Below, one piece after another: positions 2,868 to 32,676 of a stretch of 64,000 bases of DNA. How positions within the stretch are numbered: position 1 is the first letter of the stretch; every line of letters starts with the position of its first letter. Origin of the DNA: Dehalococcoidia bacterium (lineage in GTDB: Bacteria; Chloroflexota; Dehalococcoidia; UBA6926). The stretch covers positions 1,678,485 to 1,742,484 of the forward strand of contig OZ242203.1 of the NCBI GenBank assembly GCA_965206275.1, in the 5' to 3' direction. Below the pieces are notes generated by a model. It was given only the letters and a program-made list of their open reading frames with translations, was not told where the DNA came from and did not search any database. Position numbers and translations under genes: made by a program.

Positions 2868-2899
2868 GGGGGCGTCCCAGGGGACGCCCCCTTTTATTT
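2868..2899. terminator. intrinsic terminator (GC stem + T-tract); the T-tract is the insertion target of the adjacent element
   Basis: GGGGGCGTCCC-AG-GGGACGCCCCC followed by TTTTATTT, 28 nt after the dehydrogenase stop. Confidence 0.8.
2892..2899. repeat. left copy of 8-bp target-site duplication TTTTATTT
   Basis: Identical octamer at 5957-5964. Each copy directly abuts a terminal inverted repeat. Confidence 0.8.
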
Positions 2900-2922
2900 G
2901 GGACTTATATACCTATGCACAC
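2900..2922 (+). repeat. left terminal inverted repeat GGGACTTATATACCTATGCACAC
   Basis: The reverse complement of 5934-5956 is GGGACTTATATACCTATGTACAC, one mismatch. Confidence 0.85.
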
Positions 2923-3086
2923 TACGCGGCGAAGATTGCTGTCCCCACTTCAATGACAATTCCCACGAGAGCCGAAACCAGTTGAACCAAGAACTCCGCT
3001 ACTGCAACAGGGGCGAATATGAGCGCTACGACAATTAGAATCGCCCAACCTGGGTTCTCACGTGCCCATTCCCACACGTAACTCAT
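2922..3086 (-). CDS. 54-aa hydrophobic small membrane protein (element cargo)
   Basis: Hand translation: MSYVWEWARENPGWAILIVVALIFAPVAVAEFLVQLVSALVGIVIEVGTAIFAA. Its ATG overlaps the upstream TGA (ATGA). It is below the track length cut-off. Confidence 0.5.
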   Translation of the reverse strand: MSYVWEWARENPGWAILIVVALIFAPVAVAEFLVQLVSALVGIVIEVGTAIFAA

Positions 3087-3298
3087 GCGCGGCACTCCTT
3101 ACATCGCCCGTCGTCGTAAAGGACTTCGGGATAGCTAACCTCACGCCCACAGTGAGCGCACTCGTAGGTCTTGGGCTTGCCGCTCCCTGGGAAAGTCCCT
3201 GAGAACATAACGCGGGCTATCTCGTCCGGCGTCGCGTCAATGCGCGGCGGGTAACGCCGTTCCATCGGGCGACCGCGTTCTTTCTTATCGCGTGGCAT
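3083..3298 (-). CDS. 71-aa zinc-ribbon protein (element cargo), function unknown
   Basis: CAHCG...CKEC pair, basic N-terminus, and translational coupling to the 54-aa ORF. Confidence 0.55.
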   Translation of the reverse strand: MPRDKKERGRPMERRYPPRIDATPDEIARVMFSGTFPGSGKPKTYECAHCGREVSYPEVLYDDGRCKECRA

Positions 3299-3362
3299 CG
3301 CTATATCTCGCTTTACAACTCGCTATAAATCCGTATCTGGTATACTGGGGACGCGAGAAGGA

Positions 3363-3396
3363 GGCTCTGTTGCGACACATGTGTCGCAACAGAGCC
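3363..3396. promoter_or_regulatory. 34-bp perfect palindrome (17+17, no spacer) upstream of the cargo tRNA
   Basis: GGCTCTGTTGCGACACA|TGTGTCGCAACAGAGCC followed by TTTG. It lies between the divergent small operon and the tRNA. Confidence 0.6.
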
Positions 3397-3407
3397 TTTG
3401 TCGTAAT

Positions 3408-3495
3408 GCCGGGGTGGTGGAACGGTAGACGCGCTGGCCTCTCAAGTCAGTGTCCATCGTTGGACGTGCGGGTTCGAATCCCGCCCCCGGCACCA
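3408..3495 (+). tRNA. class II (long variable arm, Leu-type body, A73, encoded CCA) tRNA; the hand fold gives anticodon CUC
   Basis: Acceptor GCCGGGG/CCCCGGC, D stem GTG/CGC, anticodon stem CTGGC/GTCAG with loop CTCTCAA, variable arm GTCCA-TCGT-TGGAC, T arm GCGGG-TTCGAAT-CCCGC. Confidence 0.85.
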
Positions 3496-3502
3496 TCTCC
3501 GT

Positions 3503-3573
3503 GGCCCGTGCCACCGGACGGCAACTCCCCTTGACGAAGGGAGCCATGATGGGTTCAATCCCCATACGGGCCA
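3503..3573 (+). pseudogene. degenerate tRNA-like gene (perfect acceptor and T arm, truncated D region, enlarged anticodon loop containing GAC)
   Basis: Acceptor GGCCCGT/ACGGGCC, T arm ATGGG-TTCAATC-CCCAT, anticodon stem CTCCC/GGGAG with 9-nt loop CTTGACGAA. Only 15 nt lie between the acceptor and anticodon stems, and there is no CCA. Confidence 0.4.
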
Positions 3574-3841
3574 CTTTCTCGGAGAAGTTAGTCACTCTAC
3601 AATGCATTGACACTGCGTTGTGACCTCCTTCCCGTCAAGACCATTGTACCTCGATTCTCTGGATCAAAAAAGACCTGGATTTGACCGACTTGCTCTCTGC
3701 CCTCTAGTCTGAAAGAGCCTACCAGTCCTAGTTCCCCGCATTGGGTTACTCAGGGATGGACTACACATGTCCCCTGCGGCCCAATGCGTGGTTCGACTGG
3801 TAGGCAAACAGTCCGATCCCAAGACCGCAGGGGGCACACTT

Positions 3842-4393
3842 ATGCGACTCGTCTTTGTTCTTGCCTTGCTATTGATTCTGGCCGCAGGATGCGACGCAGA
3901 AGCCGCTACACCCACTCCACGCGCCACACGGGTTGTCATGCACACGCCGACTCCTACGGCGACATTCATTCCGCGTCCAACAAGCACACCTGCTCCCACA
4001 GCAACGGCCACGGCAATAGCCCCACCAACCGTGAGGCCAACCGCACCCCCGATTGGCGCAGTCACAGTAACGCCGTTCCCGACACAGCCACCACGCAACA
4101 CGGCGCAGACCTCGCGCGTGCCCGTGAGCGTACAGCGCGGGTGTGATGCGGCGTCTGAATTACTTGCTCTCATGGAGAATCTTGACGAGGCAGGGATAGA
4201 GCGTAATCTGACCAGGCTTGCGCGAGCCATCATAAGCACAGGGGAATATGGATTAGACGCGCAGGGTCGGCTTGTGCTCTCGGACATGGCGTCTGCGGAA
4301 CAATACGTCAACGTGTACGACGCCTTCTGGGTGATTGAGTCCGGCCTCGAAACCTATATCCACCTGTGTGAGTTGCAGGGGTACACGCCTTAG
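3842..4393 (+). CDS. lipoprotein with Thr/Pro-rich linker (element cargo)
   Basis: Signal peptide plus lipobox MRLVFVLALLLILAAGC, then a TP-rich linker and a C-terminal domain of unknown function. I chose the internal ATG at 3842 over the track start 3767. Confidence 0.6.
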   Translation: MRLVFVLALLLILAAGCDAEAATPTPRATRVVMHTPTPTATFIPRPTSTPAPTATATAIAPPTVRPTAPPIGAVTVTPFPTQPPRNTAQTSRVPVSVQRGCDAASELLALMENLDEAGIERNLTRLARAIISTGEYGLDAQGRLVLSDMASAEQYVNVYDAFWVIESGLETYIHLCELQGYTP

Positions 4394-5358
4394 CCGTCGA
4401 TTAGATCGGCGTAGGGCAGGCGCTTGCCGTCTATGCCGCGTGCCATCGCTTCCATCTGCTCAAGGGTGTCCAGTGAGCGGTCGTTGTGCCGCCCCGCGAA
4501 CTCCGTGACGTACCTGTTCAGGTGCTTGGGACTCATCTTGTGGTAGATACCGTGATACCCGCGCTTTAGCATCGCCCAGTGGCTCTCAATGCCGTTTGTG
4601 TGGGCCATGCCGTCCACGAATTGACGGACTGAGTGCTTCACGACGCCGTGCCTGCGATTCAGGAACGGCAGGGCGCTATAGGATGCGTGCTCGTCCGTGT
4701 AGACCTGTACGCCCTCTTCCGTGCGCTCGTGGACGAACATCATAAGCGTTGCCGCACTCGTGGAATGCACGACCCGTGCGCTGACCTTGTTGGTCTCGCG
4801 GTCCTTGACACCCGCCACCACAGCCTTGCCGACCGTGCCACGTCCAGCGCGTAGCTTCTTGTTCCCGTGCTTGTTGTCTTCCTTGCCACCGATGTAGGTC
4901 TCATCCACTTCGACGGGGCCTGCGAATCGCTCAGTTGCCGTATCCCACGCTTGGCGGATCCGATGCGCCATGTACCATGCGGACTTCTGCGTGATGCCTA
5001 GATCGCGGTGCAGCTTCATGCTGGACACGCCCTTGAGGTTCGTGGAGAACAGGTAGAAGGCGAGCGCCCACTTGCCAAGCGGCAGGCGGGAATCGTGCAT
5101 GATGGTGCCGGTCTTGACGGTGAAGTCCTTCTTGCAGGCGTTGCAGTGGTACTGTGTGGTCTTGCGATTGGCATAAGGCTTGCGCGTGTGAACGTTGTCA
5201 CTGTCACAGTCCACGCAACGGACGCCGTCAGGCCAGCGCAACGACACGAACCATTCCTCGGCCTGTGTGTCGTCACCGAACCTCTTGACGGCATCCACAA
5301 GGGTTATGCCCTTGCGGTATGACTTGCCTGGTGCCTTCGCCATTCTTTCCGTGTTCAC
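4390..5358 (-). CDS. IS1595-family (ISXO2-like DDE) transposase
   Basis: N-terminal transposase zinc ribbon (CVDC...CNAC), VEVDETYIGG, and the HTNGIESHWAMLKR...Y.H.S.KHL tail typical of this family. Confidence 0.9.
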   Translation of the reverse strand: MNTERMAKAPGKSYRKGITLVDAVKRFGDDTQAEEWFVSLRWPDGVRCVDCDSDNVHTRKPYANRKTTQYHCNACKKDFTVKTGTIMHDSRLPLGKWALAFYLFSTNLKGVSSMKLHRDLGITQKSAWYMAHRIRQAWDTATERFAGPVEVDETYIGGKEDNKHGNKKLRAGRGTVGKAVVAGVKDRETNKVSARVVHSTSAATLMMFVHERTEEGVQVYTDEHASYSALPFLNRRHGVVKHSVRQFVDGMAHTNGIESHWAMLKRGYHGIYHKMSPKHLNRYVTEFAGRHNDRSLDTLEQMEAMARGIDGKRLPYADLIDG

Positions 5359-5444
5359 CGCCTTCCTGATTTATGTACTTAGTGTACACTATGGCGGCGG
5401 ATTTGTCAAGGTGTGATGTACGCTTATCCACAAGGAGGAACAGC

Positions 5445-5609
5445 ATGGCTCAAACCGCACCATGGCATTCAGTGAATTCAACCGTGTATCACGAATGCAC
5501 CAATTGCACCACGGGGAACAACATTGAGCAGGAGAACTGGCGAGCAGGAACTGGCCAAAGGCGACGATGCCTGGAGTGTGTAAGCCTTATTGCTTCCGGT
5601 GGTTGCTGA
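5445..5609 (+). CDS. 54-aa zinc-ribbon protein (element cargo)
   Basis: Strong RBS AAGGAGG 7 nt before ATG 5445. Motifs HECTNC...CLEC. The track start 5373 is rejected. Confidence 0.5.
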   Translation: MAQTAPWHSVNSTVYHECTNCTTGNNIEQENWRAGTGQRRRCLECVSLIASGGC

Positions 5610-5913
5610 GAAGAGGAACCTGTTCCCAGAACACGATTTCGGAGACAGGCCCTTCTGGTTGACCGTGAATAACTGACCACACACGGCGAATCTCTTTGAC
5701 AGGCAACCCGTTATAGATCGCCACCCCAAGCGCCCGCCATTCTTCGCCATGATCGCCCTCGAAACGGACGGCTGGCTCTGGGTAGCTATGGCCTTTACCG
5801 CCCTGACAAGATTCGTATGTGTGGATTCCCTCACGACGCAGGATTAATACTGCTCTCTCAATACCAGAATCGAGCGGTGGGTCAAAGTCCTCTCGTAGGG
5901 CATACTCATTCAT
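5587..5913 (-). CDS. 108-aa hypothetical protein (element cargo)
   Basis: Only long ORF in this stretch. It starts 21 nt inside the right TIR. Third-position GC looks lower by eye than in flanking host genes. Confidence 0.5.
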   Translation of the reverse strand: MNEYALREDFDPPLDSGIERAVLILRREGIHTYESCQGGKGHSYPEPAVRFEGDHGEEWRALGVAIYNGLPVKEIRRVWSVIHGQPEGPVSEIVFWEQVPLLSNHRKQ

Positions 5914-5933
5914 GGTGATCGCCTACGATGTCG

Positions 5934-5956
5934 GTGTACATAGGTATATAAGTCCC
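5934..5956 (-). repeat. right terminal inverted repeat
   Basis: GTGTACATAGGTATATAAGTCCC is the reverse complement of the left TIR with one mismatch. Confidence 0.85.
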
Positions 5957-5997: not shown

Positions 5998-6738
5998 ATG
6001 ACTCGTCCTGCCAGGCTCACCCGGGCCGTCGTCCTGATTGATGGCCTTGACCCGCGTGCGGTCCTGCCCGCTGCGGGCCCACATCCGGCATTCAGAGAGG
6101 TGGACGGCATGCCCGCCGCCGATGTGCTTCTCCGACATTTGGCAGGGCAAGGAATGACAGAGGTATGGCTTGTTTCGCGCGCCTTACCCGGTATGGTTGT
6201 TCACTATTTCGGCGATGGGAGCAGGTGGGGAGTCAGGGCGACGCACATCCGACAGGACGGCGCGCCGGGCTCAGGCGGCGCGCTTATGGCTGCTCGCCAG
6301 CAAATAACTGAATCAACACTCGTGATTGACGGCGCTCTCGTCACGGATTTCCACCTCACTGCCATGTACGACGCACACTGCACCGTGGACACAGATGTCA
6401 CCATTTGTTTGACCGGCGAAGTAGAGGAGACAGCAGGATTGCCCCGTGCGCGAACGGATTCCTCCTCCCGTCTCGTGCAGGAAATACTGGTTGATCCACC
6501 GTTCCCGACTGACCCGGAGATTCTTGTCGGAGTTGGTATCTACATCATCGAACCCCAGGCAGTGGAGCCCTTACAGAAGGCAGGAGTGAACGCGGATTGG
6601 GTGACAGATGTCCTTCCCACTCTGGCCCGACAGAGCCGTGTTCAGGGATGGCAGGCCAACCCGGCCACCCGATTCAATCTTCCGCGCCGTGTCCGAGTGA
6701 TGCACTCCCAGACCGGACGCGCATTGCCTTCAATCTGA
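5998..6738 (+). CDS. nucleotidyltransferase-fold protein (sugar-phosphate NTP-transferase-like)
   Basis: An N-terminal AVVLIDG... beta-strand, GAPGSGGAL and overall length resemble GlmU/RmlA-type N-terminal domains. The motif match is weak. Confidence 0.5.
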   Translation: MTRPARLTRAVVLIDGLDPRAVLPAAGPHPAFREVDGMPAADVLLRHLAGQGMTEVWLVSRALPGMVVHYFGDGSRWGVRATHIRQDGAPGSGGALMAARQQITESTLVIDGALVTDFHLTAMYDAHCTVDTDVTICLTGEVEETAGLPRARTDSSSRLVQEILVDPPFPTDPEILVGVGIYIIEPQAVEPLQKAGVNADWVTDVLPTLARQSRVQGWQANPATRFNLPRRVRVMHSQTGRALPSI

Positions 6739-6779: not shown

Positions 6780-6904
6780 CCAAAACTGGTTCAAAACAAA
6801 TTTCTAATTTTGATTTGGACATGGGTGACCCTTCGAGGGTCAAGGCGCGGGATACGGGAGCAGTTGAGATAGTGGGGCTCAGGCCCAAAGAGGAGTAGTG
6901 TGTC

Positions 6905-9726: not shown

Positions 9727-11082
9727 CTACAGGCCCAGCACTCCAATCGAAAACGCCGCCAGAGCCAGCAACACCCCAAATCCCACAACGTCCGTTACGG
9801 TCGTCCCAAATATCCCGGCGGCCAGGGCCGGATCGACGCCGAATCGTCGCAGGATCAGCGGAATCAACACACCGGCGGCCCCCGCCACCAGCATGTTGAT
9901 GACCATCGCAACACCCAGCGCGATTGACAGCACCAACTCCTGCGACCATAGGAACGCAGCTACCGCGGCGACGAGTCCCATCGCCACCCCGTGGGCCAAG
10001 CCGAGCACTATCTCCTTGCCCAATACCTGTCGTGCATTCCGCAAGGTCAACTCGCCCAGCGCGATGCTTCGCACGGCAATCGTCACCGTCTGTATGATCG
10101 CGTTGCCGCCCTGTCCACCCACAATGGGCAGGAATGCCGCCAAGACGGCCGCGAGGGCAATAGTCGATTCAAACATTCCAACGACGGCTGCCGCCGCAAA
10201 TGCCGTGATTAGGTTCACGAATAACCACGGCATCCGGAGGCGCATCGACCGCACGATGCCGGTCTGAACGGATTCATCGGCATTGAGCCCGACGATCATG
10301 TACATGTCCTCGGTCGCCTCGCCCTCGGCAACCTGGATCATCTCCGGCAGGTCGATGAACCCTAGCAGTCGGTCGTCCTCATCCACGGTTGGCAGCGTGT
10401 CGAGCCGATACCGCTCCATGATTCGCGCGCACTCTTCCTGATCCGTGCCGGCCGGCACAGATATCGGATCGTGGTCCATGACGCGGGACAGCGCGGCGCC
10501 CTGTGGGGCGAGCAATAACTGCCGAAAACTGACGCTGCCCGATAACCTGCCCTCTTCATCCACCACAAAAACGCGGGAAAGACGGCGTGTAAGCGCCTCA
10601 GCGTTGCGTATGGCGACCTGCGCCTGCATAACGGTCATCCGCTCACGCAGGGCAAGGAACTCCGTTGTGACGAGCGCTCCTGCAGTTTCCTCTTCCTGGG
10701 CGAGGAGATTTCGCAGAAAATCCTGCTCGGAAAGAGTTCCAACGATCTCTGAGCGTAGCTCTCCCGGCATCGCCCGCAGGGTACGCGCGGCAGTGCCGAG
10801 CGGAGTTCGATTGAAGATCGCTGTCAGGCTTTCGCCCGGGAGGCGAGCCAGGGGCATGATTGCGCGTTCACCATGCCTGACGAGATACTCCAGCATTGCG
10901 CTGACTTCCCGCGCAGATAGATGGGAGAGGATGTCCGCCCGCGTGTGCTCAGGAAGCTGATTGATGGCATCCGCCACGTCCGCCGGCAGTTGTTCACGAA
11001 GCTCCGCTGCCACTGCCGCAGTGTCGCCCGCCGCAACCCGCTCTGCCAGCCTCTCCGTGTCTAACGTTTCGGGCAAGGTCAT
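9727..11082 (-). CDS. mgtE: magnesium transporter MgtE
   Basis: N-terminal MgtE_N region, a CBS pair, and a C-terminal TM domain with GGQGGNAIIQT and DVVGFG. Confidence 0.9.
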   Translation of the reverse strand: MTLPETLDTERLAERVAAGDTAAVAAELREQLPADVADAINQLPEHTRADILSHLSAREVSAMLEYLVRHGERAIMPLARLPGESLTAIFNRTPLGTAARTLRAMPGELRSEIVGTLSEQDFLRNLLAQEEETAGALVTTEFLALRERMTVMQAQVAIRNAEALTRRLSRVFVVDEEGRLSGSVSFRQLLLAPQGAALSRVMDHDPISVPAGTDQEECARIMERYRLDTLPTVDEDDRLLGFIDLPEMIQVAEGEATEDMYMIVGLNADESVQTGIVRSMRLRMPWLFVNLITAFAAAAVVGMFESTIALAAVLAAFLPIVGGQGGNAIIQTVTIAVRSIALGELTLRNARQVLGKEIVLGLAHGVAMGLVAAVAAFLWSQELVLSIALGVAMVINMLVAGAAGVLIPLILRRFGVDPALAAGIFGTTVTDVVGFGVLLALAAFSIGVLGL

Positions 11083-11098
11083 GGCAATCTGCTCCCTT

Positions 11099-29459: not shown

Positions 29460-32452
<2,993 letters not shown>

Positions 32453-32601: not shown

Positions 32602-32676
<75 letters not shown>

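Follow-up and report, generated by a model that had tools for sequence, protein, structure and literature searches.

The 64,000-nucleotide (nt) stretch analyzed here, hereafter the window, comes from contig OZ242203.1 of a Dehalococcoidia bacterium (Chloroflexota; assembly GCA_965206275.1, forward-strand positions 1,678,485 to 1,742,484). It contains a tRNA gene that combines a class II body of the leucine type with the anticodon CUC, which pairs with the glutamate codon GAG, and this gene lies on a transposon of the IS1595 family. A sequence-only reading had singled out the gene for this combination. The principal features of the locus are as follows.

3408..3495, + strand: class II leucine-type tRNA gene, 88 nt, with a long variable arm, A73 and encoded CCA (ARAGORN, Rfam, fold and family alignment)
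3441..3443, + strand: anticodon CUC, pairing with the Glu codon GAG, in the 7-nt loop C-U-CUC-A-A (sequence, ARAGORN and Rfam)
3362..3397, no strand: perfect 18+18-nt palindrome, 10 nt upstream of the tRNA and unique in the window (repeat search)
3338..3346, + strand: possible extended -10 element TGgTATACT for a hairpin-tRNA transcript (read from the sequence)
3501..3575, + strand: tRNA-like cloverleaf right after the tRNA, with a 9-base-pair (bp) acceptor-like stem and a D-like arm (fold -34.6 kcal/mol, z = -2.9)
3300..3645, + strand: 'tRNA module' made up of the putative promoter, palindrome, tRNA, tRNA-like element and a hairpin, without counterpart in the related element L007 (pairwise alignment)
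2900..5956, no strand: 3,057-bp transposon of the IS1595 family, bearing passenger genes and flanked by a zinc-dehydrogenase gene and a nucleotidyl-transferase gene; missing from the related metagenome contigs L001 and L002

Structure and identity elements of the tRNA

ARAGORN calls an 88-nt tRNA at 3408-3495 on the + strand, with CTC as the anticodon and position 34 at the start of 3441-3443. With the Rfam tRNA model the gene reaches 54.8 bits, the gathering score being 29 (E = 4.8e-09 over the 64-kb window); the model places CUC, and not a Leu anticodon, in the anticodon columns of the loop CUCUCAA and treats the 14-nt GUCCAUCGUUGGAC as a variable-arm insertion. The cloverleaf, which had been described as unstrained, is also the minimum-energy structure returned by RNAfold (-40.3 kcal/mol). 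Its parts are present as first read, namely a 7-bp acceptor (GCCGGGG/CCCCGGC), U8, A14, G18G19 in the D loop, a 3-bp D stem followed by G13.A22, an anticodon stem CUGGC/GUCAG with one G.U pair, the variable arm GUCCA-UCGU-UGGAC, the T loop UUCGAAU, A73 and CCA. The upstream palindrome is slightly longer than the 17-bp stem initially given for it, with 18 nt perfectly repeated on each side.

The assignment of a Leu-type body to a Glu anticodon likewise stands. The gene is 75-76% identical to E. coli genes annotated as tRNA-Leu, with 94-95% of its length aligned, and the alignment conserves UGGYGGAAYUGGUAGACRC, U44-G45, C-G-U48 and the T loop. In E. coli, leucyl-tRNA synthetase (LeuRS) recognizes A73, A15-U48, G18G19, A20a and tertiary pairs that join the D loop to the T loop, makes no use of the anticodon or the variable arm, and seryl-tRNA synthetase is blocked by C2-G71 (PMC9976931). 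Every LeuRS element on this E. coli list is found in the window tRNA, including the anti-Ser C2-G71. The discriminator A73 is the A at 3492, directly followed by CCA, and the hinge set is complete (A14, A15-U48, G18G19, A20a, G18:U55, G19-C56 and U54:A58), with the corresponding columns (GGAAC-GGUAGAC, C-G-U before the T stem and UUCGAAU) invariant in the alignment with E. coli tRNA-Leu. The 3-bp D stem and long variable arm give the gene the class II architecture. Leu anticodons (NAG or YAA) all carry A35, and none is present in the window tRNA; because CUC has U35, the gene is not a tRNA-Leu in the decoding sense.

The determinants of glutamyl-tRNA synthetase (GluRS) comprise a modified U34, U35, C36, A37 and an augmented D helix formed by U11-A24, U13-G22:A46 and the absence of nucleotide 47 (PMC9976931). 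The window tRNA has only U35, C36 and A37 of these; position 34 is C, and instead of the augmented helix there are U11.G24, G13.A22 and a 14-nt variable arm. Because the LeuRS elements are all present and those of GluRS are matched only at U35, C36 and A37, leucylation would be the default expectation. High-GC bacteria do have natural tRNA-Glu(CUC) isoacceptors. The host encodes Glu mainly by GAG (39 per 1000 codons), a codon that is not avoided in the transposon's own genes; because of this prevalence, a window copy that is expressed and leucylated would touch most proteins.

The transposon and the flanks of the tRNA gene

The gene had been placed on a mobile element, and this element can now be delimited.

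2900..2922, no strand: 23-nt terminal inverted repeat at the left end, GGGACTTATATACCTATGCACAC, with 96% complementarity to 5934-5956
5934..5956, no strand: right terminal inverted repeat, pairing with the left end
2892..2899, no strand: left copy of the 8-bp target-site duplication TTTTATTT, by comparison with the empty site in L002
5957..5964, no strand: right copy of the 8-bp target-site duplication TTTTATTT, A/T-rich
4390..5358, - strand: IS1595-family DDE transposase, 322 amino acids, with an N-terminal zinc ribbon (Pfam DDE_Tnp_IS1595, 3.5e-38, plus Zn_ribbon_IS1595)
3083..3298, - strand: passenger open reading frame (ORF), 71 amino acids, CxxC...CxxC zinc-ribbon-like, divergent from the tRNA; weak family match only, homologues in related copies of the insertion sequence (IS)
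3767..4393, + strand: passenger ORF, 208 amino acids, with a lipoprotein-like signal and a Pro/Thr-rich linker; no family match
5587..5913, - strand: passenger ORF, 108 amino acids; no family match

The transposase reaches 175.7 bits against the NCBIfam model transpos_IS1595 (cut-off 75), and the terminal inverted repeats, which start with GGG, occur in the window only as these two copies. Relatives preserve the empty site: L002 has a single TTTCATTT where the window has the duplication and the transposon. A/T-rich 8-bp target duplications have been reported for another IS1595-family element, ISApl4 (PMC12561309). The protein encoded by the dehydrogenase gene on the left (1827-2840) is identical residue for residue on L001 and L002, where the nucleotidyl-transferase gene follows directly; in the window that gene starts at 5998. 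BLAST of the window against L002 gives 94-97% identity on either side of a 3,057-bp gap. Judged from these alignments, the insertion is recent and polymorphic.

The element resembles IS1595-family insertion sequences with passenger genes in its DDE_Tnp_IS1595 transposase, its zinc ribbon, its GGG-starting inverted repeats and its A/T-rich 8-bp duplication, and it differs from the closest copies examined in having a tRNA as a passenger. Its three closest transposase relatives (L006, L007 and L008; 71-79% identity) have a similar layout, and its inverted repeats recur at both ends of L007, at one end of L006 and at neither end of L008. No tRNA or tRNA remnant was found in any of the three, and we therefore rejected the idea that a tRNA is a standard part of this IS lineage. 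Homology with L007, the best-matching copy, ends at the start of the 71-amino-acid ORF and resumes near 3645, so the ~345-bp tRNA module is specific to the window's element. The four small ORFs on the transposon have no family match in Pfam, NCBIfam or PADLOC, and none of these resources gives the IS passengers a defence or toxin annotation. Exact-sequence look-ups of the IS proteins returned no record, so other copies of this exact element were not located, and the literature searched yielded nothing relevant on IS1595 elements that combine passenger genes with a tRNA.

The palindrome sits between TGgTATACT, the only promoter-like site, and the tRNA gene. As RNA it would form a hairpin of -33.4 kcal/mol (fold z = -8.1) followed by UUUGU, and it may serve as an attenuator or terminator or as an operator. 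A motif, GCGAGAAG, that stands before the hairpin in the window and also before the terminators of two small RNAs from Gemmatimonadaceae was dropped because equally long matches occur at random places.

On the other side of the gene, the cloverleaf at 3501-3575 has a T-like arm (AUGGG-UUCAAUC-CCCAU) and a TTGACG motif in its 'anticodon' loop. It is uncalled by ARAGORN and unmatched in Rfam up to E = 10; allowing a C.A pair would give it a possible GAC 'anticodon'. The motif is part of a TTGACG-17-TTCAAT arrangement (3531-3559) that resembles the small-RNA promoters of the soil family described below, and neither a seed nor a terminator comes after it. Another hairpin follows the cloverleaf. 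An inverted match between 3440-3457 and 3606-3623 was considered as a pairing and rejected (14 of 18 positions, not significant).

Relatives with non-Leu anticodons and antisense small RNAs

We searched for relatives with a pattern consisting of the Leu-type D arm GGTAGACRC, a YU-CUC-R loop and a T loop at class II distance; the collection scans demanded CUC and the GGTAGAC form of the D arm, which limits the view they give of the breadth of the family. Across 185,579 species genomes, one per species, the pattern matched in three places, of which one is a clean tRNA, in a Gemmatimonadaceae metagenome-assembled genome (L004). The other two were rejected as family members, one being degenerate tRNA-like sequence and one a chance match (L003 and L005). 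The L003 sequence (6803-6874, - strand, in an Arenicellales metagenome-assembled genome) is Leu-like, with the loop CUCUCAA, a variable region of ~30 nt and mismatches in the T and acceptor stems, and is not called by ARAGORN. In JGI metagenomes the pattern matched in 11 places, and ARAGORN calls all 11 as class II tRNAs of 85-87 nt with the anticodon CTC; one of these contigs bears a second Leu-type class II tRNA, with anticodon CAC. In all, pattern scanning gave about 20 other CUC tRNAs of the Leu-type class II kind, from soil metagenomes and the Gemmatimonadaceae genome.

Viral contigs contained no Leu-type CUC tRNA, and a CBC pattern gave only four matches there. Among the IMG/VR matches listed, phage class II tRNAs with a Leu-like D arm carry anticodons for Asn (GUU; L024, L026 and L030), Gln (UUG; L049 and L053) and His (GUG; L112, L126 and L136). 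Their acceptor and discriminator match the anticodon, with U1-A72/G73 for Asn and Gln and G-1/C73 for His. The matches listed also include Leu-like ochre-suppressor tRNAs (UUA) of phages, L051 and L088.

When nine of these tRNA genes are aligned with two E. coli tRNA-Leu genes, 97% of the cells are paired. Changes on both sides are seen in 13 of the 25 pairs, covariation extends to all five pairs of the anticodon stem, and pairing falls to 36-47% when the 3' partners are slid. This covariation indicates that the CUC genes are real, diverse tRNAs sharing an odd anticodon. It also counts against the suggestion that the window tRNA is a recently mutated cargo gene, since CUC is at least two substitutions from any Leu anticodon and the loop recurs on divergent Leu-type backbones with compensatory stem changes.

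The window tRNA shares the family's make-up: a Leu-type class II 7/5 body, A73, a non-Leu anticodon and a loop of the form YU-NNN-A-(A/C). Family members score 45-54 in Rfam, and the window gene stands at the top of this range. It is 80-82% identical to the tRNAs of L010 and L018 and 72-76% identical to Leu-decoding tRNAs, a margin to which the shared loop contributes.

In Gemmatimonadaceae the tRNA and its small-RNA gene or genes lie between tonB and mutS, and in relatives with an 80%-identical TonB the two genes abut with nothing between them. At this locus L004/L017 and L019 carry CUC, contigs whose TonB is 96% identical to that of L004 carry the same tRNA body with CGC, and another contig carries UGC. 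Because identical bodies at one locus carry CUC, CGC or UGC, the anticodon is uncoupled from the acceptor. The acceptor stem at the locus is GCUCGGG, with U3-A70 and without the G3:U70 needed for alanine identity; the Ala anticodons therefore match the body no better than the Glu one does. All four anticodons of the family (CUC, CGC, UGC and CAC) are directed against abundant GNG/GCN codons.

All non-degenerate soil members for which downstream sequence exists have, on the tRNA's own strand, a segment that can pair with part of the tRNA. The module set comprises L004, L010-L012, L014, L016, L018, L019, L147 and L149-L158, with the following loci.

L004 783-1005; L010 1775-2000; L018 315-510 and 1145-1345: tRNA plus one or two small-RNA genes
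L011/L012, L014, L016, L019, L147, L149-L158 (anticodons CUC, CAC, CGC or UGC): tRNA plus same-strand small-RNA gene or genes

The antisense segment begins 44-65 nt past the 3' end of the tRNA, and its pairing takes in the 3' D stem, the 5' anticodon stem and all of the anticodon loop. Complementarity extends over 12-25 nt ungapped and, when small gaps are allowed, reaches up to 33 Watson-Crick pairs over positions 5-48. Each such seed is preceded at 5-9 nt by a predicted sigma-70-like promoter, whose first element is TTGACC, TTGACG, TTGACT, TTGATC or TTGCGT and whose second, after a spacer of 17-18 nt, is TAGATT, TATTTT, TAAGTT, TATGCT, TATACT or, once, GAAACT. Each seed is followed by a GC-rich hairpin and a U run, that is, a predicted intrinsic terminator. 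The promoter of L004 and the terminators of L004 and L018 are also called, independently, by a scan tool. The predicted small RNAs are ~65-85 nt long, with the antisense block as their 5' seed, and match no Rfam family beyond sub-threshold noise. The seed tracks the anticodon: it contains UUGAGAG (GAGAG) with CUC, UUGUGAG (GUGAG) with CAC, UUGCGAA or GUGCGAG (GCGA) with CGC and UUGCAAG with UGC.

As a control, we analyzed 428 phage tRNAs. Their longest downstream complements have a median length of 9-10 nt, and a single one (1/428) is 15 nt or more; five of the eight distinct units of the family reach 15-25 nt ungapped. One control tRNA (L046), with a 20-nt downstream complement, was rejected as an instance of the same phenomenon because it pairs in the variable arm. 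Co-folding favors the duplex of tRNA and small RNA by 15-26 kcal/mol. No conserved protein or synthetase lies beside the modules, whose neighbors include MutS/TonB, VWA, DUF2130, DUF2779 and VanZ.

Three contigs carry two small-RNA genes in tandem. The second gene of the pair in L150 and L019 has the seed GGTGTCTACCAGTTCCACC(A), perfectly complementary over 18-19 nt to the D arm (tRNA positions 8-26), and because Leu-type tRNAs generally share these positions, the second small RNA might also touch the cell's ordinary tRNA-Leu. L149 has the anticodon UGC, but its first seed is still one for a CUC loop; the second small RNA matches the UGC loop, and a direct repeat of ~35 nt flanks the small-RNA genes. 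The tandem seeds of L149 look like the record of an anticodon switch accompanied by a replacement antisense RNA.

Taken together, the tRNA and small-RNA loci look like a previously undescribed RNA-only module. In the genomes and metagenomes covered it is accessory, with a constant Leu-type body, a fast-changing missense anticodon and antisense RNAs that change with it.

Several members depart from this pattern in detail. L009 (7379-7463) and L013 (1416-1501) carry related CUC class II tRNAs with the loop UUCUCAA and a disrupted 3' acceptor strand, and no antisense partner was found for either; decay of the copies, or an integration event that cut the genes, may account for this state. In L010, L014 and L016 the anticodon stem has a conserved mismatch at its middle pair (29-41), either C.U or U.U, and L150 closes the loop with A.C; such features could serve to tune decoding down. 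The tRNAs of L010, L014, L016 and L018 (both units) share two upstream motifs, GCGAAGCA at ~40-55 nt and AATCGC at ~8-15 nt. These elements are off the sigma-70 consensus and may form a promoter through which an alternative sigma factor drives the tRNA, with the small RNAs under sigma-70-like promoters.

Readings of the tRNA, known parallels and minor observations

We propose, with a probability of roughly one half, that the window tRNA is a missense tRNA which accepts Leu and has been orphaned from an undescribed tRNA/anti-tRNA module; it would have been moved by the transposon and would now be either nearly silent or mistranslating at a low level. LeuRS, being blind to the anticodon, would charge a tRNA of this type with leucine, and the leucylated tRNA would compete on the ribosome at GAG codons, placing Leu for Glu. 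Indirect support for Leu at GAG comes from the anticodon variants at a single locus and from the antisense small RNAs, which would be expected where the activity of such tRNAs has to be restrained. In the complete modules, the small RNA would pair first with the exposed anticodon loop and then open the tRNA, thereby neutralizing it as an RNA antitoxin neutralizes an RNA toxin. Because no antisense partner was found for it, the window copy would be nearly silent (it has no consensus promoter, and a strong hairpin separates the promoter-like site from the gene), neutralized from elsewhere in the genome or engaged in low-level Glu-to-Leu mistranslation. Transcription, leucylation, decoding and toxicity of the window tRNA, as well as the function of the small RNAs, we infer from the features described above.

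A bolder version, which we advance tentatively and at less than even odds, makes the tRNA the toxin half of an RNA-only class resembling toxin-antitoxin systems. Leu-accepting missense tRNAs (CUC, CGC, UGC and CAC) would poison the proteome, antisense RNAs would unfold them, anticodon and seed would co-evolve rapidly between strains, and a lone tRNA would have been picked up by an IS1595 transposon and carried into another phylum, in Dehalococcoidia.

Several observations weigh against our proposal. Searches for an antisense partner of the window tRNA, by ungapped complement within +/-300 nt, blastn-short over 64 kb, windowed RNAduplex with shuffles and local alignment with shuffles, found none above chance near the gene or within the 64 kb; if the tRNA is toxic, a copy left unrestrained in this way should be selected against. 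The small-RNA gene expected 44-65 nt downstream, with promoter, seed and terminator, is likewise missing, and a consensus sigma-70 scan finds no promoter upstream of the window tRNA and leaves TGgTATACT uncalled. Membership in the family rests on similarity of at most 82%, in a scan that itself demanded CUC. The window gene encodes CCA, unlike the soil members of the module set, and the host's tRNA-Arg and tRNA-Met genes encode it as well; because the encoded CCA is host-like, an independent origin from a Chloroflexota tRNA-Leu is possible. The tRNA is also dispensable for the transposon, since related IS copies lack it. Compared with the 10 other aligned Leu-type tRNAs, the D loop lacks 1 nt upstream of G18G19, which could alter recognition by LeuRS because that recognition depends on the position of G18G19. 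Finally, the phage class II tRNAs whose acceptor identity matches a non-Leu anticodon indicate that a Leu-like body is no proof of Leu identity.

Some of these observations would suit a silent hitch-hiker, a captured gene of the tRNA-Leu type that is unexpressed or non-functional, without effect on the cell and heading to decay. The gene is single-copy in the window, the three related IS copies carry no tRNA, no consensus promoter was found, a very stable hairpin stands directly upstream, the window offers no antisense partner, and a recent, polymorphic insertion leaves little time for selection. We nevertheless consider this unlikely. The cloverleaf is flawless, with the conserved tertiary nucleotides and CCA intact, and its Rfam score of 54.8 tops the family range; the anticodon is two or more changes away from any Leu anticodon in a gene that is otherwise undecayed, and the CUC loop recurs on independent backbones.

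We give still less weight to a true tRNA-Glu in a class II body, charged by GluRS through its anticodon and faithful at GAG; it might, for example, be a spare isoacceptor out of reach of nucleases that target tRNAs. GluRS makes strong use of U35, C36 and A37 and does not need N73 (PMC9976931), and phage class II tRNAs with Asn, Gln and His anticodons suggest that class II bodies can be re-assigned. However, the window tRNA lacks the augmented D helix (U13-G22:A46, no nucleotide 47 and U11-A24), and its acceptor and discriminator stay Leu-like (G1-C72, C2-G71 and A73), unlike those of the phage cases. With the LeuRS elements intact, at least partial leucylation would be expected. In addition, one Gemmatimonadaceae body (U3-A70, without G3:U70) bears CUC, CGC or UGC, and a faithful tRNA has no obvious need of a dedicated antisense RNA. 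The module pattern fits a harmful tRNA that is held in check and argues against a faithful tRNA-Glu in an odd body.

A non-translational RNA seems to us just as improbable. It would lure or soak up an anticodon nuclease, a small RNA or a tRNA-binding protein, as a decoy or sponge, or would be a non-ribosomal aminoacyl donor, with the anticodon loop as a recognition site. The loop is the center of the RNA-RNA pairing site in the family, anticodons shift quickly among close relatives, in the manner of recognition sites in conflict systems, and a second tRNA-like fold follows the window gene, but the elements for processing, CCA, charging and EF-Tu or ribosome binding are conserved (acceptor, A73, T loop, U33 and 7-nt loop), where a pure decoy needs fewer, and no conserved partner protein lies nearby.

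Whether the Leu-accepting missense reading has precedents can be judged from naturally encoded hybrid-identity tRNAs, among which the window gene belongs. The nearest functional analogue is provided by the nev-tRNAs of nematodes, class II tRNAs derived from tRNA-Leu with anticodons for Gly (CCC) and Ile (UAU) (Hamashima et al. 2012, PMC3333845). They are charged with leucine only and decode GGG as Leu in vitro (PMC3333845), the same logic as we propose for the window tRNA. Nev-tRNAs are eukaryotic, nuclear, nematode-specific, weakly expressed and inclined toward rare codons, whereas the window tRNA is bacterial, transposon-borne and directed at an abundant codon; an antisense RNA partner has not been reported for nev-tRNAs.

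Bacterial allo-tRNAs, from soil Acidobacteria and others, have a long variable arm and a mismatched anticodon and are toxic in E. coli (Mukai et al. 2017, PMC5389517); in soil metagenomes they occur near toxin-antitoxin and transposon-related genes (PMC5389517). The window tRNA shares with them the long variable arm and an anticodon that mismatches the identity of the body. Allo-tRNAs have an 8/4 or 9/3 layout of acceptor and T stem, and those tested are mostly of Ser or Ala identity, whereas covariation gives the window tRNA and its relatives a canonical 7/5, Leu-type layout in place of the 12-bp 8/4 or 9/3 branch. The text of the allo-tRNA paper makes no mention of antisense RNAs (PMC5389517). 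The tRNAProX/ProRSx pairs of Streptomyces and Kitasatospora (PMC11415595) are likewise encoded bacterial tRNAs of hybrid identity that mistranslate sense codons, but tRNAProX has a class I tRNA-Pro body with Ala, Asn or Thr anticodons and a dedicated synthetase paralogue, and no conserved synthetase lies near genes of the window type.

For the antisense modules, whose loci lie outside the window, the closest class is the type VIII toxin-antitoxin system CreT/CreA (PMC8501985), in which both partners are RNA and the toxin hits translation by sequestering a tRNA. CreT is mRNA-like and is repressed transcriptionally by a CRISPR-derived guide with Cascade, whereas the soil modules pair a tRNA as putative toxin with a plain antisense small RNA as putative antitoxin. 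The modules may represent a new kind of RNA-only system of the toxin-antitoxin type, of which the window copy holds the tRNA half only. Neither a bacterial Leu-type tRNA(CUC) nor a module of tRNA and antisense small RNA is described in the literature searched, which is no proof of novelty.

Few lineages are known to encode mistranslating tRNAs, the examples being the nev-tRNAs of nematodes, the allo-tRNAs of Acidobacteria and tRNAProX of Streptomyces. The locus adds a bacterial Leu-type tRNA of canonical 7/5 layout directed at a very common codon, and its position on a transposon shows that such tRNA genes can move between genomes. If our proposal is right, cells or selfish elements would have found a new use of the genetic code as a weapon or switch, and antisense RNA would control a tRNA directly in a natural setting. 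Why a code-breaking tRNA is kept and how it is tolerated become questions that simple constructs can test. There is also a consequence for annotation: ARAGORN labels these genes tRNA-Glu or tRNA-Ala by the anticodon alone.

Elsewhere in the window, a complete 23S ribosomal RNA (rRNA) gene lies at 29460-32452, followed 150 nt later by a tRNA-Met (CAU) gene at 32602-32676. No 5S or 16S rRNA gene was detected within the 64-kb window, and the rRNA genes therefore appear unlinked. A second segment, ~9760-11095, is like the transposon present in the window and missing from both L001 and L002; it holds an mgtE-like gene (9727-11082, - strand) with an ORF of 451 amino acids resembling magnesium transporters.

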